Shown: positions 12,441 to 21,438 of the stretch, piece by piece
Layout: the number at the start of each line of letters is the position of its first letter
How positions within the stretch are numbered: the first letter of the stretch is position 1
Source: Spirochaetia bacterium
GTDB taxonomy: Bacteria; Spirochaetota; Spirochaetia; UBA9216
Reading direction: 5' to 3'
Length of the DNA stretch: 64,000 nucleotides
Assembly (NCBI GenBank): GCA_963675665.1
Contig: OY776510.1
Span: 2,784,001 to 2,848,000 of the forward strand
Position numbers and translations under genes: made by a program
Notes under the pieces: model-generated
Told to the model about the DNA's origin: nothing
The model's database searches: none
The model's input: the letters and a program-made list of their open reading frames with translations, nothing else

Positions 12441-14513
12441 TTATTTAACCAACAGGGGAATAGGGGTGGCTATTTCATACCCCTGTGCAAAATCGATGCC
12501 GAATTCTTTCAGCATCTCAATTATTCTGGCATTACAGACGAACTCAGCTATAGTTTTCTTTCCCATGATATGGCCCATCGTGTTGATTGCCTCAACCATA
12601 GCCCTGTTTTCATCATCTTCGTGCATATTCTTGACGAACATGCCGTCTATTTTTAGATAATCGACAGGAAGGTTTTTCAGATAATTGAACGATGAAAAAC
12701 CGCTTCCGAAATCATCAAGCGCAAAGGTGCATCCTGTCTGTTTAAGATCATTTATAAATTCGTGTGCGGACGACATATTGCTGATTGTAGCGGTTTCCGT
12801 TATCTCAAAGCAGACTGCTTCAGGTGAAATCCCGGAGGTTCTGAATGAGTTTTTAATGAATTCAAGAATACTGTCGTCCGAAATTGACTGGGCTGAAAGG
12901 TTAACTGATATTTCACGAATATGGTTAAGTTTTCCCTTCGCTTTGTTTTCCTGATACAGACGGATGGAATTCGAAATTACCCATCGGTCAATCTGGGGCA
13001 TCATGTTATACCGCTCGGCTGCCGGAATAAAATCGGCGGGCATTACCAGATTGCCTTTCTCATCCTTCATTCTTATCAGAATTTCACCCTTGCTGTAGGA
13101 AGAGTCTGTTTCTTTCAAGGGTTTGATTTCCTGAATATAGAGTTCAAACTGGTTTGAATCAAGGGCTTTCGAGAGTTTGCTTACCCATTCCATCTCGCCG
13201 CGCCGCTGCTGAAACTGGTTGCCTTTTCTGTCATAAAGTTTAATCCGGTTCCCGCCTTCTTCCTTGGCAACAAGGCATGCGTCATCAGCCTCGGCAAGGG
13301 CCTCTGATACGCTCTCTGAAGAATCATCGAGAAAAGTAATACCGATACTTGCGTCAAACGGAAAGACCTTCCCGTCCCATTTGAGTTTTTTGTTATGGAA
13401 TTGGGAATGAAGGTCTTTAATTTTTTCGAGTGCTTCCTTCCTGTTTTCGGTTCGTATAATAAGTCCGAACTGATCTCCTCCGAGCCGGGCGCTGTGATTG
13501 GTGTCTGAAGAAAAAGCCTTGATGATTGATGCAATTTCCACAAGCATGGTATCGGCGGTTGTATGGCCGCAGGTATCGTTAATTATCTTGAATCTGTCTA
13601 TATCAATGTATGCCAGCGCGGAACACTCCTTGCCGGTTGAAGGTTTTTCCAGTATCTGCTCAAGCTGAACAGAAAAGATTTCCCGGTTGGAAAGACCGGT
13701 CAGTTTGTCGTGGCTGGTATGATATTCCACTGCTTCGGAAAGTTTACCGACTGTCGTCATATCCCTGATTGCCAGAACAAGTCCTTCAAAATTGCCGGTT
13801 TTATCTGTTATCGAAGCAAGGCTTCCTTCAACCTGCAGTTTTTCACCGAATCTGTTGGCAAGATAGCAATTTTTAAAGGTGAAAGGTCTTTTCCTGATGA
13901 GAGAGTCGTCTCCCTGGGGCAGTACAAGTTGTGCATGGTTCGGATCACGCATGTCTTCAAGGGTTATTATATCCGAAATGTGTTTTCCAAGAAGATCCTG
14001 CTGAACCCACCCGACGATTTTTTCAGCAATCGGATTCAGTAGAATAATCCTGTCATCGGTATCAGTTGCAATGATGCCGTCACCGATGGAATGCAGAATG
14101 GCTGTTGACCAGCGCTGCTGGCGTTTAAGTTCCTGATCAACCCGGTATTTATAAAGGGAGATATCAATTGTTGTATAAAGTTCTTTGTCTTTGAAAGGTT
14201 TCAGGATATAACCGGAGGGTTCGGCAATCTTGGCACGCTCAAGTGTCTTTTCATCCGAGTATGCAGTAAGAAAAATGACCGGTATGGCATATTCATTTTT
14301 TATTATGGTGGCAGTTTCTATGCCGTCGATATCGCCGACAAGCATGATGTCCATTAAAATAATGTCCGGAGAATGCTGTTTGACTAGTTCGAGGGCCTGT
14401 GCTCCTGCTGCCGCTATAGCAACGACGGTGTAACCGAATCTTTCAAGTCTTCGCTGGAGATCAATTGCTATAATACGCTCATCTTCTACGACTAAAATTT
14501 TCTCATTTTTCAT
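12441..14513 (-). CDS. REC-PAS-GGDEF-EAL protein (likely c-di-GMP phosphodiesterase)
   Basis: Receiver domain (ILVVEDE, MDIML, KP), a PAS domain, degenerate GGDQF, and an EAL domain with EILIR and ALDDFGSG. Start is ATG 14513 or TTG 14528. Confidence 0.9.
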   Translation of the reverse strand: MKNEKILVVEDERIIAIDLQRRLERFGYTVVAIAAAGAQALELVKQHSPDIILMDIMLVGDIDGIETATIIKNEYAIPVIFLTAYSDEKTLERAKIAEPSGYILKPFKDKELYTTIDISLYKYRVDQELKRQQRWSTAILHSIGDGIIATDTDDRIILLNPIAEKIVGWVQQDLLGKHISDIITLEDMRDPNHAQLVLPQGDDSLIRKRPFTFKNCYLANRFGEKLQVEGSLASITDKTGNFEGLVLAIRDMTTVGKLSEAVEYHTSHDKLTGLSNREIFSVQLEQILEKPSTGKECSALAYIDIDRFKIINDTCGHTTADTMLVEIASIIKAFSSDTNHSARLGGDQFGLIIRTENRKEALEKIKDLHSQFHNKKLKWDGKVFPFDASIGITFLDDSSESVSEALAEADDACLVAKEEGGNRIKLYDRKGNQFQQRRGEMEWVSKLSKALDSNQFELYIQEIKPLKETDSSYSKGEILIRMKDEKGNLVMPADFIPAAERYNMMPQIDRWVISNSIRLYQENKAKGKLNHIREISVNLSAQSISDDSILEFIKNSFRTSGISPEAVCFEITETATISNMSSAHEFINDLKQTGCTFALDDFGSGFSSFNYLKNLPVDYLKIDGMFVKNMHEDDENRAMVEAINTMGHIMGKKTIAEFVCNARIIEMLKEFGIDFAQGYEIATPIPLLVK

Positions 14514-14582
14514 ACGTTGCCATTCCAAACCTAATGATATAAACTTTAAGTTGAAAAAGCAACAAAGTTTTCAGGATTTTTT

Positions 14583-15719
14583 ATGAACGGTCTATTTTTC
14601 GAGAATAAGATTCCGAATTCGGATTTAACTGCAAGGAAAACGGCAAGAAGCCGTGACCTTCGCTCTTCATACTTTCGGGACACCACCGCAATCATTCACA
14701 GTTATCCTTTCAGGAGGCTGAAGCACAAAACGCAGGTTTTCTTCTCTCCTCATAATGATCATATCTGTACCCGTATTGAGCATGTGATGCATGTAGCTTC
14801 TATTGCCGCGACTATCTGCAGGGCGCTTGATCTGGATGCAGACCTTGCCTGGGCAATAGGGCTTGGACATGATCTGGGACATACGCCCTTCGGTCATGTC
14901 GGCGAAACAATCTTGTCTTCAATGATGAAAGAGCAGGGCGGGTTCAAGCATGAGATATATTCCCTCAGGGTTGTGGATTACCTGGCAAATTACGGCAAGG
15001 GTCTTAATCTGACCTATGCTGTGCGTGACGGCATTCTCAATCACTGCGGTGAGAAATTCGAGCAGTCTATTGTTCCCGACCCGGAATTGAAGAACCTGTC
15101 CGGGATAACCACAAGAGAATATTATCCGGCAACATGGGAAGGCGTTGTAGTACGTGTTTCCGACAAGATTGCCTATATGGGACGCGATCTTGAAGATGCG
15201 CTTCAGCTAAAAATTATCAGCCGTGACGAACTGCCAGAAAATATTATCAGGGTATTGGGCAGCAGTAACAGTGAAATTATAAATACAATGGTGAACGACC
15301 TTATAACGACATCACTTGAAACAGGACGTATAGGATTCTCCGATGATGTTTTCAGCATGATGATAGCCCTTAAGGACTTTAACTACAGCAGAATATACAA
15401 GAACCCTATGCTTTCGTCATACCATCGCTATTTTGAAAGGGTGCTGACAACACTCTATAATTATCTTGATGATCTTTTCAGGACCGGCGGAGATGATGTC
15501 TCCGTTTACATGTCTGAAAATAATTTTCTTGCCGCCAGGTTTTGTGATTATTACCAGAAGATGAAACATTTCTACAATGAAGTTGACGGCGGTTATGATA
15601 TGATGATTTATGATTATATTGCCGGTATGACCGACAAGTATGCACTCAGCTGTGTAAACGAGGTAATGATTCCCAGAAAATTTGAATATCAGTTTAACGA
15701 GATTTTTCTTGATAATTGA
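14583..15719 (+). CDS. dgt: dGTP triphosphohydrolase-family HD protein
   Basis: Motifs FRRLKHKTQVF, TRIEH, GHDLGHTPFGHVGE and DYIAGMTD. Confidence 0.88.
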   Translation: MNGLFFENKIPNSDLTARKTARSRDLRSSYFRDTTAIIHSYPFRRLKHKTQVFFSPHNDHICTRIEHVMHVASIAATICRALDLDADLAWAIGLGHDLGHTPFGHVGETILSSMMKEQGGFKHEIYSLRVVDYLANYGKGLNLTYAVRDGILNHCGEKFEQSIVPDPELKNLSGITTREYYPATWEGVVVRVSDKIAYMGRDLEDALQLKIISRDELPENIIRVLGSSNSEIINTMVNDLITTSLETGRIGFSDDVFSMMIALKDFNYSRIYKNPMLSSYHRYFERVLTTLYNYLDDLFRTGGDDVSVYMSENNFLAARFCDYYQKMKHFYNEVDGGYDMMIYDYIAGMTDKYALSCVNEVMIPRKFEYQFNEIFLDN

Positions 15720-15746: not shown

Positions 15747-16448
15747 CTAATTATTATACCTGAGTTCGCAGGAGATTCCCTGTTTCTCAAACAGGTCTTT
15801 CATCTCTTCAAGAAGAGCAGGCGGCGGCGCGGGAAGCTCTGAAAAAGCGGGATCATAGGTGATTCCGGGTCTGAAGCCCTGCAGAACGAATTTTTTCTCT
15901 CCTTCGATCATGCCGATTATTTCTTTTATCACATCAATATCCACAAATCCCGGAACTACGGTTGTTCTAAAGTGATGCGGAATTCCCGACTCCTTGATAA
16001 TACGTATCGATTCGGTAATTCTTCCGCCTATCTCTGAATTATCCCCTGTAAATCCCAGCCTGGAGTATTTATTAAGTGAAGTCTTTATATCCATTGCAAT
16101 ATAGTCTGCTTTCATTGTCCGCAGTTTTTCAGGCAGCGCGCCGTTTGTATCGAGCTTTACGGCCAGGCCCAGGCTGTGTATATCATGTATTCTGTCCGGC
16201 AGATCATCATGAAGAAGCGGTTCGCCCCCTGTGATGCATACCCCGCCGAGAAGGTGCGCCCGTTTCTGAAGGTAGTCCGTAATCCCGGTCCAGGTAAAAA
16301 GATCCGGAACTTTGGAATTTTCGATAAATTCGGGGTTGTGGCAGTACGGGCAGCGCATATTGCATCCCCGGGTGAAGATTGTTGAAGCAACCTTCCCGGG
16401 GAAATCAATCAGGGTAGTTTTATTCAGTCCGTAAAGCTTTTCAGCCAT
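15747..16448 (-). CDS. nrdG: Anaerobic RNR activating radical-SAM enzyme
   Basis: CNMRCPYCHNP radical-SAM motif, GGEP and DTNG. Located in the nrd operon. Confidence 0.92.
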   Translation of the reverse strand: MAEKLYGLNKTTLIDFPGKVASTIFTRGCNMRCPYCHNPEFIENSKVPDLFTWTGITDYLQKRAHLLGGVCITGGEPLLHDDLPDRIHDIHSLGLAVKLDTNGALPEKLRTMKADYIAMDIKTSLNKYSRLGFTGDNSEIGGRITESIRIIKESGIPHHFRTTVVPGFVDIDVIKEIIGMIEGEKKFVLQGFRPGITYDPAFSELPAPPPALLEEMKDLFEKQGISCELRYNN

Positions 16449-16454
16449 TGGAAA

Positions 16455-16985
16455 TTAAACCGGAACTTTGGAAAAAAGCGCATCAAGCGCATCGATGTTT
16501 GTTGCCCTGTACATCTCACGGCCTTCGTTGTCAAGAAAGATGACGGTGGGAGAAACAAAAATCTGATATGAAGCTGCAAGCGCAAAGCCTTCCTTTTTAT
16601 CGACATTTACAGCTTCACCGTTTAGATGCGAGTTATCAAGCCAGTTTCTTACCGGAGGACAATTAGGGCATGTTGTCCGGTAAAAATAAATATATTCGGC
16701 CGGGTCGCTTGTGCTGTCCGAAAGGATGGCCCGTTTGGGTTCAGGGGTATCGTTAAAGGTTGCAGTACTTACCGCAGATTCTGCAACCTCTCTGAGCGAA
16801 ACTTTACCGGGCTGGGTGAACAGCTTTCTTTTATTGTACTCGTCTCTCTTGCCCTTGTTCCAGTTTTTTACCGCACGGTAATAACCTACTATTCTTGTGT
16901 AAACTTCGGTTTCAGTTCCCTTTACCGATGTCATTCGTTCCCTGAGCTCTTTGATTTCGTTATCGATTGTTTCAACAGTTCTCAT
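16455..16985 (-). CDS. Stand-alone NrdD glycyl-radical domain fused to a glutaredoxin/NrdH-like CPNC domain
   Basis: TEVYTRIVGYYRAVKNWNKGKRDEY is the NrdD C-terminal Gly-radical loop. A linker is followed by YFYRTTCPNC...VSPTVIF (thioredoxin fold). Confidence 0.85.
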   Translation of the reverse strand: MRTVETIDNEIKELRERMTSVKGTETEVYTRIVGYYRAVKNWNKGKRDEYNKRKLFTQPGKVSLREVAESAVSTATFNDTPEPKRAILSDSTSDPAEYIYFYRTTCPNCPPVRNWLDNSHLNGEAVNVDKKEGFALAASYQIFVSPTVIFLDNEGREMYRATNIDALDALFSKVPV

Positions 16986-19090
16986 TAATTTTCTCCCAGT
17001 TTAATTTTTTCTTTTTCCAGTTTTTCTATTTGAGCTGCAATAGCAGCCTTTTCTTCATCGGCGCATTTTGGGCAGTTGAAATGTTCGCCGTTCAGATAGC
17101 CATGTTTCGGACAGACTGAAAAGGTCGGCGATATTGTAAAAAACGGCAAATGATAGTTCGATGCAATGGTTTTTACAAGGTTCATGCAGGATTCCCAGTC
17201 TTCTACAGCTTCGCCGAGGAAGCCGTGGAACATTGTTCCGCCGGTATACTTCACCTGCAGTTCGTCCTGCAGATCCAGGGCCTCAAAGATATCGGCCGTA
17301 AAATCAACAGGCAGCTGCGACGAGTTGGTATAAAACGGCGCGTCTGTGCCTGAAGTAATTATGTCGGGGTATTTGTCCCTGTCGTGTTTGGCCAGCCGGT
17401 AACTGGTGCTCTCTGCCGGAGATGCTTCAAGGTTGTAAAGATCTCCTGTTTTTTCCTGGTAATCAGCAAGGCGGTTCCTCATGAAATCCAGAACCTCAAG
17501 TGCAAAATCCCTTCCTTCGTCGGCGACAATGTCCTTGCCGAGGAAATTAAGAAGCGCTTCATTCATGCCGCAAATGCCGATTGTCGAAAAGTGATTATTC
17601 AGGTGGGAAAGATATCGTTTTGTATACGGAAACAGCCCTGCTTCCATCAGCCTGTTGATAACCTTGCGTTTGATCTGCAGCGATTCGGCGGCAAGGTCCA
17701 TCAGGTTGGCAAGCCTGCTGTAAAAATCCTGTTTCGAATTGGCAAGATAGCCTATTTTGGGCAGATTAAGCGTGACTACACCTATTGAACCGGTAAATTC
17801 ATCTGAACCGAACAGACCTCCGCCCCGTTTGCGAAGTTCCCGCTTGTCAAGCTGAAGTCTGCAGCACATTGAGCGCACGTCGTTCGGATCAAGATCGGAA
17901 TTAATGAAGTTCTGGAAATTCGGAGTGCCGTATTTTGCGGTCATTTCAAAAAGCAGTTTGGAATTCTGGGTAGTCCAGTTGAAATCGCGCGTGAGGTTGT
18001 AGGTAGGGATAGGGTACTGAAATCCACGGCCGTTTGCATCACCGGTGAGCATGAGTTCAATAAATGCCTTGTTTATGATGTCCATCTCTTCCTGGCAGTC
18101 GCCGTAAGTGAAATCAAGTTCTTTTCCGCCGACTATAGCTTTTTTATCCTCAAGATCATGCGGGACCGTCCAGTCGAGAGTAATATTGGTGAAAGGAGCC
18201 TGGCTTCCCCACCTTGATGGTGTGTTAACGCCGAATATAAAACTTTGCAGCCCCTGTTTGACTTCCTTGAAGGAAAGCTGATCGGATTTTACAAAGGGTG
18301 CAAGGTATGTGTCGAAGCTCGACAGCGCCTGAGCGCCCGCCCATTCATTCTGCATTATGCCCAGAAAATTAACGATCTGCTGAATGAGGGTGGACAGATG
18401 GGCCGCAGGAAGCGAAGTGATTTTATCGGGCACGCCCCCCAGGCCTTCCTGGATAAGCTGCCTGAGCGACCAGCCTGCGCAATAGCCTGAAAACATGGAC
18501 AGGTCGTGAATATGGAAATCTGCATTCCTGTGTGCTTCGGATATTGCTTCGGAATAGATGTTCTTTAGCCAGTAGTTTGCCGTTATTGTCCCCGAGTTAT
18601 GAAGAATCAAGCCTCCCAGAGAGAAGTTGACGTTTGCATTCTCATTTACGCGCCAGTCGGACTGCTGAAGATAGCCGTCCATTGTTCCGTTAATATCAAG
18701 CATGAGTTTTTTCGTGTCACGCATTACCTCATGCCGGGCGCGGTAAATGATATATGCCTTGGCAATCTCAACTTCGCCTGATTCTATAAGTATCGATTCG
18801 ACAATATCCTGAATCTCTTCGATAGCGGGGGCCGAATTAGGGTGTCTCCCGCTCATGAATTCCGTCAGTGCGGTCTCTACCTTGACTGTTAAAGCCTCTA
18901 CAAGATCAAGATCTTCACTGTTTCTTGCTGCATGAATAGCCCGACCGATAGCGCTTGCAATTTTCCATCGATCGTATTTTTCAGTAGAACCGTCACGCTT
19001 AATTATCTGTCGTACGACGGATCTTTCAGCGGGCTTGTGTTCGACTCCCAGAAACTCTTTCCAGTCGTTGTCAGTCTGCCTGAAATCCAC
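16985..19090 (-). CDS. nrdD: Class III anaerobic ribonucleoside-triphosphate reductase, large part (ATP-cone, barrel and Zn site; lacks the Gly-radical loop)
   Basis: ATP-cone IIKRDG, HIHDL, YCAGW, finger loop SMCCRL, NLEASPAES and CPKH..CPKC. Ends in a helical tail with no RxxGY motif. Confidence 0.95.
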   Translation of the reverse strand: MDFRQTDNDWKEFLGVEHKPAERSVVRQIIKRDGSTEKYDRWKIASAIGRAIHAARNSEDLDLVEALTVKVETALTEFMSGRHPNSAPAIEEIQDIVESILIESGEVEIAKAYIIYRARHEVMRDTKKLMLDINGTMDGYLQQSDWRVNENANVNFSLGGLILHNSGTITANYWLKNIYSEAISEAHRNADFHIHDLSMFSGYCAGWSLRQLIQEGLGGVPDKITSLPAAHLSTLIQQIVNFLGIMQNEWAGAQALSSFDTYLAPFVKSDQLSFKEVKQGLQSFIFGVNTPSRWGSQAPFTNITLDWTVPHDLEDKKAIVGGKELDFTYGDCQEEMDIINKAFIELMLTGDANGRGFQYPIPTYNLTRDFNWTTQNSKLLFEMTAKYGTPNFQNFINSDLDPNDVRSMCCRLQLDKRELRKRGGGLFGSDEFTGSIGVVTLNLPKIGYLANSKQDFYSRLANLMDLAAESLQIKRKVINRLMEAGLFPYTKRYLSHLNNHFSTIGICGMNEALLNFLGKDIVADEGRDFALEVLDFMRNRLADYQEKTGDLYNLEASPAESTSYRLAKHDRDKYPDIITSGTDAPFYTNSSQLPVDFTADIFEALDLQDELQVKYTGGTMFHGFLGEAVEDWESCMNLVKTIASNYHLPFFTISPTFSVCPKHGYLNGEHFNCPKCADEEKAAIAAQIEKLEKEKIKLGEN

Positions 19091-19113: not shown

Positions 19114-19566
19114 TTATTTAAGCTTTTTAATCTCATCAATGAATTCCTGTACATCGCCGTAAGAACGATAGACTGATGCAAAACGAATATACGCCACACT
19201 GTCTATCCTGTAAAGTTTTTCAAGTACAATCTCACCGAGCTCTGCAGCCAAGATTTCATGTGTACTCTTTCCAATCATATAAGCCTGATCCTCGATATCT
19301 GCAAGAATTTCGCTGACTGTTTCGGCGGAAACAGGTCTTTTTTCAAGCGAACGCTCAAGCCCCCTCGAAATCTTGGTAATATCGAAAACTTCCCTGATGC
19401 CGCTGCGTTTTACAACCATCAGAGGGCGTTCTTCAATCCTCTCATAAGAAGTAAATCTGTATGAGCAGGCGCAGCATTCACGTCTTCTTCTGATTGAGGT
19501 TCCTGACGATGATTGTCTGGATTCTATAACTTTATCGTTATCTTCTCCGCACCGCGGGCATCTCAT
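19114..19566 (-). CDS. nrdR: Transcriptional repressor NrdR
   Basis: MRCPRC...RRRRECCAC.YRFTSYE, an ATP-cone and VAYIRFASVY. Confidence 0.97.
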   Translation of the reverse strand: MRCPRCGEDNDKVIESRQSSSGTSIRRRRECCACSYRFTSYERIEERPLMVVKRSGIREVFDITKISRGLERSLEKRPVSAETVSEILADIEDQAYMIGKSTHEILAAELGEIVLEKLYRIDSVAYIRFASVYRSYGDVQEFIDEIKKLK

Positions 19567-19821: not shown

Positions 19822-21438
19822 TCAAACAAGGGCTTTCGCCGAGCTCTCAAAGGCGGTGGAAGCAGGTCTGAACGGAAAACCGACAACAATTCCAAGGCCG
19901 CTGTTTATTGAATTATGAAGAAAGGTTGAAAGAAGTTTCAGATAAACATCCTTCTGAATTCCTTCGGCATTGTTAAAAAGAAGGCCTGCAATATTGAATG
20001 TTTCAACGACTGCGGCAATCTGCCTGAGCACAACAGGAAATAGAACGTCTATAAGTCTGAGATATTCCTTTTTATATGATGATTCCTCTTTTACCAGCTG
20101 AAGAATCTGGCTGTGCTTGTCGCGGATCTCTTCGCCGCGGTTGTTTGTTCTGACGGGTATAAATCCTTTAATGAGATCAGTAACGGTTTTTGATGAAAAT
20201 AATTTATAAAGCGAAAAGTCGAACAGAAGCAGCCCGGCAGTGCTTTTTATATATGTATTGTGATTGTTGCGTTCAGAGTGCAGGACCTCCAGCAGTCTGC
20301 TCAGGCGCTTATCAACCGCCTTAAGGCTTGTGGAGTCCGGGTTGGAAAAGAACAGTCTTGTAGAGTTACTCTGATCATCTACAGCAATTTTAAGCTGCGC
20401 TGAAGTTTTTATAAGTTCGGACATCAGTGCGTCTGCATGGAGCGATTCAATAAGCGCGGTAATCCTCTTTTTTTCTTCGTCCGAAAAGACATTCAGACCG
20501 CCGTTGACGATTTCGCTGAAATAATTTTCGGAACTGCGAAGAGTATTCGTATTCATGATAATGAAAATATATTCCGACAGTTTTCTGAAGGTGGTTTCAA
20601 TATCCCTGATATACGGATTGAGGTGGAGATAATGCCTTATCAGGCTTCCGGAAGGGCCCGGCAGAGATGCTGAAAAAGACAATTCGTCAATACGCTGTTC
20701 GATAAGAAAATCGAGTCTTTCACTCATTTGCGCAAGGATATTTACAGTTAAAGACGGATTGCTCTGAAGCAAATCCATAGCCGGATCATTCGGAATATAG
20801 GCAGCATCAGTCATACTTATTCGGGAAAAATCAAATTTATCTTCATCCGGGACGTTTTTATTATAGTTTCCCGGAAGATCATGGGGATCAAAGCCGGCTG
20901 TTGTTATTCCGGCGTATTTATTATGCCAGAGAAGATACTCAAGCTCGTTTCCACTGCTGTGGGCCTGTTTTATATAGTAACCTGAGGCGGTGTGCGAGGT
21001 GGGTTCATCGTTTGTAACAATAACAAGTTTCCCCGTATATTGCAGAAAAACAAGGTTTTCCTCATAAAGGCTGCCGGCCGGAAGATCCAGAATCAGTTTA
21101 TCGTATTCCGTTTCAAGTTCCGGGCTGAATTTAACAAGTTTTTCGTAAGAACCTGATTCCCTGTTTTCAAGAATTGAATCGGGAAAGATTAAATCCAGAT
21201 TCGGAAGGACACGTATCCGGTGCGAGTTAAAATCATCACTATCATCGGTTAATTCTGCGTTTCCCGCCTCGGTTATATCCAGAAGAGTGGCAATATCGGA
21301 AAGCGGATCAAGATCTATCAACCCGGTTTTAAGCCCGCTTCGGGCAAAGTAAACAGCAAGATTCACGCATGTTGTGGTTTTCCCGACGCCGCCCTTTCCA
21401 GAAGCAACAGCTATTGATTTGGTTTTAATAGAATCCAT
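19822..21438 (-). CDS. MinD/FlhG-family P-loop ATPase with a long extra domain
   Basis: Deviant Walker [17 protein letters not shown] and LDLPAG. Length 538 aa. Confidence 0.75.

Follow-up and report, generated by a model that had tools for sequence, protein, structure and literature searches.

Two-gene class III ribonucleotide reductase in Spirochaetota with a predicted glycyl-radical loop on a small, redoxin-fused subunit

The genes described here lie on contig OY776510.1 (assembly GCA_963675665.1) of a Spirochaetia bacterium, in a stretch of 64,000 nucleotides (nt; positions 2,784,001 to 2,848,000) that was analysed as a whole and is called the window below; all coordinates are window positions. 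The minus strand of the window carries a four-gene run consisting of nrdR, a large nrdD gene, a small nrdD gene and nrdG. The two nrdD genes would encode a class III ribonucleotide reductase (RNR) whose chain is divided, with the catalytic barrel on the large protein and the glycyl-radical loop on the small one. The probability is put at about 0.8 that this is a working class III RNR of two polypeptides, which are made together from one operon, joined by a coiled-coil tether and equipped with a tethered redoxin on the radical chain.

The cluster starts with nrdR (19114..19566), the transcriptional repressor of RNR genes (TIGR00244: 173.6 bits, cut-off 124.65; Pfam Zn_ribbon_NrdR and ATP-cone domains). 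A promoter-like site precedes it at 19666-19638, as a consensus match alone (10 of 12 positions). The gene of the NrdD large subunit follows (16985..19090, 701 amino acids (aa)), comprising an ATP-cone, a 10-stranded barrel, the finger loop, a Zn ribbon and a helical tail, but no glycyl-radical loop. The NrdD small subunit (16455..16985, 176 aa) consists of a docking helix, the glycyl-radical loop, a linker and a thioredoxin-fold domain. Directly downstream of the small gene lies nrdG (15747..16448), which encodes the radical S-adenosylmethionine activase (TIGR02495 (NrdG2): 186 bits, cut-off 131.15). The large and the small gene overlap in the TAATG at 16983-16987, where the stop codon TAA (16987-16985) and the start codon ATG (16985-16983) have one base in common. 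The ribosome-binding site of the small gene, GGGAG (16993..16997), lies within the last codons of the large gene, with 7 nt between it and the ATG. The junction reads ctgGGGAGaaaatTAATGaga, or CTGGGAGAAAATTAATGAGA in the extended reading. A consensus scan for terminators found none on the minus strand between the large and the small gene, and inside the large gene the same scan gave weak 9/12 promoter-like matches only.

The large open reading frame (ORF) contains the motifs SGYCAGW, RSMCCRL, NLEASPAES and SVCPKHGYLNGEHFNCPKC, and it ends in ADEEKAAIAAQIEKLEKEKIKLGEN without an RxxGY motif. The ATP-cone occupies residues 28-121 (18728..19009; PF03477, E 1.1e-20). In the barrel, C204 of YCAGW is the beta-A cysteine. 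The finger-loop motif M408-C409-C410-R411 (17858..17869) is of the double-cysteine type, is invariant in 22 of the 22 aligned large subunits and aligns to SCCR 328-331 of Thermotoga maritima, whose positions are given in PMC9669993. The putative proton-donor Glu, E555 in NLEASPAE (17426..17428), is aligned to T. maritima E495 and is likewise invariant in the large-subunit alignment. The predicted metal-binding Zn ribbon (C660-x2-H663 ... C673-x2-C676, 17063..17113) has all four residues invariant in 22/22. Overall, the mean column identity of the large chain among the aligned relatives amounts to 76%, and its best sequence matches in the Protein Data Bank (PDB) are the T. maritima NrdD structures 4COI and 4U3E (E 4.5e-37). 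A preliminary description of the locus, made from its letters, had listed YCAGW, SMCCRL, the Zn site, a CPNC motif and the missing RxxGY of the large ORF, and each of these was found where it had placed them. Its mention of extra active-site cysteines and of the LEAxPAE Glu is borne out by C204, M408-C409-C410 and E555.

The class III family profile is divided between the two proteins. Pfam NRDD (PF13597) covers the large protein with profile positions 1-532 of 562 (E 1.3e-172), while the rest of the profile, positions 532-562, matches the small protein at residues 25-56 (E 6e-8, 32.2 bits, cut-off 26.2). The same holds for NCBIfam NF006126, which matches the large protein at positions 2-652 of 684 (1079 bits, cut-off 548) and the small protein at positions 648-682. 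The clean cut of the NRDD profile between the two proteins was repeated in a whole-genome search. In the small ORF, the N-terminal start MRTVETIDNEIKELRERMTSVKGTETEVYTRIVGYYRAVKNWNKGK is followed by the conserved glycyl-radical loop region (residues 21-60, 16806..16925), in which G34 of the R31-I-V-G-Y-Y36 motif is the predicted radical site (16884-16886). Invariant residues of the small chain in 24/24 sequences are G23, E27, Y29, R31-R37, W42, N43, G45 and K46. A search of the small protein for PF01228, the Gly_radical domain of the pyruvate formate-lyase (PFL) type, gave no match. Since the large piece is devoid of the loop, the small protein would be obligatory for the radical, and the earlier proposal of an enzyme encoded in two pieces with an indispensable small one agrees with the division of NRDD. 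It is very probable from the sequences that there are two separate chains and that the radical glycine resides on the small one.

The features of a class III RNR are otherwise present: the NRDD barrel, the finger-loop cysteines, the Zn ribbon and an adjacent NrdG. However, the RxxGY motif, which the family carries on the barrel chain, is present here as an invariant RIVGYY on the next polypeptide. The pair is therefore to be regarded as a variant architecture of the class III family instead of a standard member.

Behind the radical loop, the small chain continues with a linker (residues 61-95, 16701..16805) of low conservation and variable length (pLDDT, the predicted local distance difference test score, 44-62). 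It leads to the thioredoxin-fold domain (residues 96-176, 16458..16700), which carries C106-P-N-C109 at 16659-16670. When the small protein was folded alone with AlphaFold2 (AF2), residues 97-172 formed a confident thioredoxin fold (beta-alpha-beta-alpha-beta-beta-alpha, pLDDT 85-90), with the CPNC directly before helix 109-118. By sequence, the PDB offers marginal thioredoxin-like matches only (E 0.013 and worse), so that a fold search was needed. In Foldseek the best PDB matches of the redoxin domain are thioredoxins (E 5e-5 to 3e-4, TM score (target) 0.47-0.70). A CxxC is found in 23/23 of the relatives that possess the redoxin domain, the CPNC form in 71 of 75 split loci, and P146, T147 and V148, in the Pro loop that precedes strand 3, show a conservation of 90% or more. 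As modelled, the C-terminal domain is a member of the thioredoxin family at the fold level only, in line with the CPNC thioredoxin-fold domain of the preliminary description.

The active site also shows the markers of the thiol-dependent NrdD2 enzymes: the two cysteines at 409-410 and a Glu at the position of T. maritima E495. In the available text of PMC9669993, this combination marks thiol-dependent chemistry, as in Neisseria bacilliformis, and the Glu marker is defined via an alignment to T. maritima residue 495. Judged by its residues, the inventory of C204, M408-C409-C410 and E555 fits a thiol-using class III RNR.

At the cut, each chain is extended by a helix. In the split loci, 23-38 residues (median 27) separate the last CxxC of the Zn ribbon from the end of the large chain, and RIVGY is preceded by 29-49 residues (median 32) in the small chain. 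Here, the large chain ends in an amphipathic tail helix (residues 677-701, 16988..17062), as indicated by heptad conservation and model contacts, and the small chain starts with the N-terminal docking helix (residues 2-20, 16926..16982; AF2 helix 4-20, pLDDT 82). Conservation of the helices was measured on 94 distinct pairs, parsed from 103 loci. In the tail helix, Leu, Ile, Val, Met or Phe occupies each of the positions +8, +12 and +15 after the CxxC in 99% of the pairs, and position +22 in 81%. In the N-terminal helix, the same residues are found at -27, -24, -20, -13 and -10 before RIVGY in 95-100%, and at -17 in 61%. The hydrophobic residues follow a 3-4-3-4 spacing and the intervening positions are charged. 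Both helical extensions of the preliminary description are therefore retained as conserved elements with heptad spacing.

A model of the complex of large and small chain scored 0.83, with 0.00 for the best of three controls; 116 of 157 solved complexes attain this mark, as do 2 of 215 mismatched pairs, a calibration that holds only roughly, as custom alignments were used. The model runs agree in at least 76% of the contacts and the partner pLDDT is at least 69. In the large chain, confident contacts involve the Zn ribbon (654-662 and 666-674), the barrel (355-361, 387-389, 558-568, 580-604 and 620-638) and, at intervals of three or four residues between 676 and 699, the tail helix (676/677, 680/681, 684/685, 687/688, 691/692, 694/695 and 698/699). 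In the small chain, they involve residues 2-4, 7-8, 10-11, 14-15, 17-18, 21-37 and 41-60; the loop region lies within the modelled interface with barrel and Zn ribbon. The lowest errors are found for the contacts of large-chain residues 656-660 and 668-673 with small-chain residues 24-30. The Gly loop (residues 25-39) has a pLDDT below 50 when the small subunit is folded alone and is ordered only in the complex model. The suggested docking through a coiled coil thus has its counterpart in the model, which pairs the two helices. It is likely, given the conserved heptads and the modelled contacts, that the helices serve as a tether between the chains. We know of no solved structural precedent for this helix pairing.

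The split is widespread among relatives. A species-level set was formed by the best 80 of at least 595 relatives in one-genome-per-species contigs, found by a pattern scan. Of the 80 loci in this set, 75 are split and none is fused; the other 5, most of them at contig ends, are unclear. The titles of the best 80 are all spirochaete save two odd bins, and include Treponema bryantii, T. porcinum, T. lecithinolyticum, Treponema sp. OMZ 840, Marispirochaeta and Oceanispirochaeta. The two odd bins (L059 and L094), titled Collinsella sp. and Bacteroidaceae bacterium, carry a spirochaete-type split locus; these titles probably reflect binning or labelling errors and not a transfer. In all 19 species-level loci that were inspected individually, the small gene directly follows the large one, and a gene with the CX3CX2C motif (nrdG) lies 3' of the small gene in 71 of the 75 split loci. 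Among 41 genomes of the same class, the small protein occurs in 29 and an NRDD match in 32 (27 as two separate pieces, 4 as one piece, 1 as a fragment). From the loci taken from relatives, 23 of 25 are split and two, G038 and G015, are ordinary one-chain NrdDs. Two of the relatives, G026 (99% complete) and G036 (98% complete), have the split NrdD as the only RNR catalytic subunit found, with no PF02867 match. The search of related genomes that the preliminary description called for has thus recovered the same split. Single fused ORFs, which it had named as evidence against its view, do exist among relatives, though only as rare forms that differ at the junction, and not in this lineage. On this comparative evidence, the two-chain layout of the class III RNR is genuine and conserved, and the enzyme in all probability works. 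The conserved heptad residues, together with a split that is kept in 75/80 loci, show that the tether is under selection, without showing the same for the split as such.

It could be argued that a single chain is made after all, by stop readthrough, a frameshift or selenocysteine, or that the cut is a sequencing or assembly error or the sign of a pseudogene. The two frames are indeed in phase in 13/23 relatives and in 21/75 species-level loci, and the large gene stops at TGA in 17 of the latter. Nevertheless, the stops of the 75 split loci comprise TAA (53), TGA (17) and TAG (5), and the frame offsets between the genes are spread nearly equally over the three phases (21, 24 and 30). The gap between the genes ranges from -26 to +346 nt and some loci have two in-frame stops. 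Because stops, phases and gaps are so mixed, a readthrough or frameshift scheme is excluded; selenocysteine insertion and TGA readthrough were rejected on the same mixture. A start of its own is usual for the small gene, with a Shine-Dalgarno-like motif before the ATG in 88 of the 94 distinct relatives, and in the present genome the two frames are in a different phase and overlap by 1 nt. An error at the junction is contradicted by a 3.3-kb contig from a different study, which spans 16400-17400 with 10 substitutions and no indel; the junction is identical and free of indels in contigs of two studies. A third run crosses it without any difference, and no indels are listed in any of four runs. 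The perfectly matching run may be the source of this genome. Both halves are moreover highly conserved. Taken together, a single chain, an error or a pseudogene is scarcely credible. One apparent fusion, the 476-aa P0121, which joins the end of a large subunit to a small subunit, was rejected as an out-of-frame gene call: the second CxxC is absent and nonsense residues stand at the junction. The P0121 string recurs in Treponema lecithinolyticum (L090), within the frame that precedes its small gene, and such an artefact could pass for a fused form.

A mechanism can be proposed for the two-chain enzyme. As the sequences and their comparison show, the small chain supplies the glycyl-radical loop absent from the large chain, which stops about 25 residues after the Zn ribbon. 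In the model, and in agreement with the conservation, this loop would pack against the Zn ribbon, reach into the barrel and so complete the radical domain. Again by model and conservation, the tail helix of the large chain and the N-terminal helix of the small one would form an antiparallel two-helix coiled coil that replaces the missing peptide bond. From what is known of the family, NrdG would install the radical at small-chain G34, from where it would move to the finger-loop cysteine (C409 or C410); the substrate would be reduced and a disulfide with C204 formed. By the same analogy, the thioredoxin-fold domain (C106/C109), on its flexible linker of about 35 residues, would re-reduce this disulfide. 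Finally, the redoxin domain would be recharged by a cellular reductase; TrxB is encoded in the genome (388 bits, cut-off 343). That the fused redoxin is the physiological reductant is considered probable, with less assurance than the tether.

Several observations weigh against this reading of a working, redoxin-coupled two-chain enzyme. M408 is retained, in which the enzyme departs from the NrdD2 subtype, and because this Met is kept, formate could serve as a second reductant. According to PMC9669993, 83% of the enzymes with the double cysteine retain the Met, and this majority, to which the present enzyme belongs, could use formate or thioredoxin. The redoxin domain stays under the Pfam cut-offs (Glutaredoxin: 19.1 bits against 22.9; Thioredoxin_2: 17.4 against 27) and has no confident contact in the complex model. 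The finger loop 408-411 is also outside the confident contacts, and the model gives no proximity of Gly to Cys. The complex model that had been suggested as a check thus answers in part: the helices pair and the Gly loop lies against the Zn ribbon and the barrel, while the finger loop is not reached with confidence. Furthermore, the Gly-loop part of the model pass may be memory, because one-chain NrdD structures have been solved, and in that case it attests a likeness and no binding. One split relative, G039 (L032:966-1178, minus strand), has a 71-aa small subunit with the docking helix and the Gly loop but without a redoxin, followed by nrdG. A split enzyme can therefore do without the redoxin. 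Lastly, the genome under study also has a PF02867-type (class I/II-type) RNR, and hence the split enzyme is not essential there.

The junction was also compared in one-chain relatives. All 52 longer database matches were inspected, of which 50 have a measurable junction between CxxC and RIVGY. It comprises exactly 8 residues in 44 of these and 13-14 residues in 4. Both helices are present in only two, P0122 and P0151, where a short loop connects them. With 48 of the 50 one-chain relatives lacking them, the helices are associated with the split. In P0122 and P0151, the formerly intergenic stretch is translated in frame. The tree places P0122 as sister to a split form with 100* support, at 85% identity, which implies that a short loop can join the helices, as an antiparallel hairpin predicts. 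P0151 is a one-chain form with the hairpin and without the redoxin. The same redoxin tail is carried by 36 one-chain NrdDs, of which 35 are without junction helices. Judged by these forms, the redoxin fusion is older than the split and separable from it. In one of the two relatives with an ordinary one-chain enzyme (G015; L037, minus strand), a separate small gene with the start MEQTPYQIVIFGKEGCQKCH comes just behind that of a distant one-chain NrdD (912-aa frame). The small gene looks like a free CxxC redoxin where the spirochaete relatives have a fused one. Four one-chain NrdDs whose relatedness lies in the radical loop (P0153, P0154, P0167 and P0170) carry intein/Hint-type Pfam domains (PF14890, PF14528), and P0153 and P0154 also a C-terminal redoxin.

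A quick maximum-likelihood tree was built from 75 catalytic bodies: 44 split, 29 one-chain with redoxin, 1 plain one-chain and 1 distant outgroup. The one-chain sequences were cut before the radical loop, a single-matrix model without mixture was used, and the basal branches are long. One-chain redoxin forms branch at the base. A clade of 60 rows with 100* support contains the 44 split forms mixed with 16 one-chain ones, so that the sampled one-chain redoxin forms branch both outside and inside the spirochaete clade. The well-supported branches force at least 6 state changes. Forcing the 45 helix-bearing rows into a single clade lowers the log-likelihood by 249 units (p-AU, the approximately unbiased test, 1.2e-5), for a group that was named after the tree had been seen. 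The state changes may mean that chains were re-fused several times by deletion, that they were split several times, or that gene ends recombined.

To our knowledge, every class III RNR studied so far carries the radical glycine on its catalytic chain. The known one-chain NrdD enzymes with their NrdG (T. maritima 4COI/4U3E, phage T4 1H78/1H79 and Prevotella copri 8P23) share the barrel, the ATP-cone, the finger loop, the Zn ribbon, the RxxGY motif and the NrdG partner with the present enzyme. They differ in that the chain is here cut between the Zn ribbon and the radical loop, in that about 25 extra residues of the large chain and about 20 of the small chain, each a helix, flank the cut, and in the thioredoxin-fold domain after the radical loop. 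Thiol-dependent 'NrdD2' class III RNRs of N. bacilliformis and T. maritima have reportedly been described by Wei et al. 2014. As here, these display the double-Cys finger loop, a Glu at the E495 position and a redoxin as the likely reductant. In contrast to them, the Met before the double Cys is kept (MCCR, not SCCR) and the redoxin is fused to the radical chain, where they use free thioredoxin. One-chain NrdDs with a C-terminal CPNC redoxin are found in metagenomic data (with a Margulisbacteria bin named by one source and archaeal bins by others); they have the same radical loop, linker and CxxC thioredoxin fold, but are not split. A catalytic RNR subunit in two polypeptides is said to exist in Pseudomonas aeruginosa, where NrdJa and NrdJb of a class II RNR derive from adjacent genes. 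That enzyme, however, is of class II, works with adenosylcobalamin and no glycyl radical, and is cut at a different point.

Another likeness is that to GrcA/YfiD, which is, as the small subunit here, a small separate glycyl-radical protein and would use the activase of the enzyme itself (PMC13450708 and PMC8683613, in their accessible parts). GrcA is a second copy of a domain present in PFL itself and takes the place of that domain only after damage, whereas the small chain here is a constitutive subunit. Its docking helices and redoxin have no counterpart in GrcA, and PF01228 is absent from it. According to the same two reviews, the first of them from June 2026, spare-part proteins are known for formate lyases only, and the question is open for other glycyl radical enzymes. 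In the database, 1540 cluster representatives of 96-308 aa match the small protein at E <= 1e-3, under pipeline names such as 'anaerobic ribonucleoside-triphosphate reductase', 'glutaredoxin' or 'hypothetical'. A RefSeq survey of fusions between glutaredoxin (Grx) and RNR reports one grx::nrdD case in its available text (PMC6187632). The survey kept RNR hits with at least 90% profile coverage and Grx hits above the gathering score. Because of these rules, as they stand in that text, the small protein would drop out of such a survey. A full-text literature search, with subscription journals outside its scope, found no description of a split class III RNR, of a glycyl-radical NrdD subunit acting in trans, or of the spirochaete layout.

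Why the enzyme is split can be explained in different ways. One possibility, given somewhat less than even odds, is that the split is neutral or nearly neutral: a hairpin between the Zn ribbon and the Gly loop tolerated a stop and a restart, and the two-chain form drifted to dominance in the spirochaetes without a specific benefit and with occasional reversion. The lability of the state (at least 6 forced changes, rejection of a single helix-bearing clade), the natural one-chain hairpin forms P0122 and P0151, the tight coupling of the two genes, and the catalytic residues and redoxin tail common to one-chain and two-chain forms all agree with such drift. It is less easily reconciled with the rarity of helix-bearing one-chain forms (2/50), by which no long-lived hairpin-first stage is visible, and with a split that is kept in 75/80 species-level loci with strongly conserved heptads; the tree behind the lability is, moreover, a quick single-matrix tree.

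Alternatively, the small subunit may act as a spare part. Cleavage by O2 at the radical Gly would then cost only a cheap 20-kDa cartridge containing radical and reductant, and a fresh small subunit would be swapped in, similar to GrcA/YfiD for PFL. As the large chain is without a Gly loop of its own, any cleavage must hit the small chain, and a non-covalent coiled-coil tether would in principle permit exchange. Some relatives have 100-346 nt between the genes, which leaves room for a separate promoter, and the literature leaves the question open outside the formate lyases (PMC13450708 and PMC8683613, where accessible). In the present operon, however, the 1-nt overlap and the ribosome-binding site within the large gene point to a coupled, roughly equimolar synthesis. 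The 41 genomes searched have one small-subunit gene each, double matches being the two halves of one gene. One-chain helix-less forms are also found inside the spirochaete clade, and a single helix-bearing clade is rejected (p-AU 1.2e-5, with the reservation that this group was chosen once the tree was known). The genome's 10 further glycyl radical enzymes are without exception one-chain: all 10 PF01228 matches lie in 759-852-aa frames of PFL-like enzymes, only the RNR is split, and a stand-alone GrcA-like protein was looked for in this genome and not found. An exchangeable spare part is for these reasons regarded as doubtful. In a third reading, the split could serve activation or turnover, either because NrdG acts on a free or loosely tethered small subunit, or because the radical loop undocks so that the redoxin reaches the active-site disulfide. 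In the available text of PMC13450708, the PFL radical domain must exit the barrel for activation and the N-terminal half of YfiD promotes radical installation. The low confidence of the Gly loop alone, which is ordered only in the complex, and the position of nrdG 3' of the small gene in 71/75 loci would suit such a role. Since one-chain NrdDs with the same redoxin tail manage without a split, a role in activation or turnover is judged unlikely.

Irrespective of its cause, the two-chain enzyme would be a natural class III RNR with the radical in trans and the usual form in Spirochaetota (75/80 of the best species-level loci, cultivable Treponema included). It offers a ready-made system to separate radical installation, docking and catalysis, and a natural case in which to test the spare-part logic outside PFL. 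The tethered redoxin is also relevant to the electron source of the common double-cysteine class III enzymes. If the small chain were indeed an exchangeable cartridge, a damaged copy leaving after cleavage at G34 and a copy activated by NrdG docking in its place, it would be the first built-in spare-part glycyl radical enzyme outside PFL. The cartridge form would then be the standard enzyme across a whole bacterial phylum, including host-associated Treponema.

The surroundings of the operon complete the locus. A dGTP triphosphohydrolase-like HD protein is encoded at 14583-15719 on the plus strand, as the divergent neighbour of nrdG (TIGR01353: 170 bits, cut-off 152). The same HD-protein gene flanks the operon in relatives of the same genus or family (L001, L002, L005 and L008). 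An enzyme degrading deoxynucleoside triphosphates that adjoins an operon for making them may represent a functional pairing. Further out on the minus strand, 12441-14528 encodes a 695-aa response regulator with GGDEF and EAL domains. On the other side, 19822-21438 (minus strand) encodes a protein of 538 aa, in which an N-terminal ATPase domain of the MinD/ParA type is followed by a long C-terminal part without an assigned domain.

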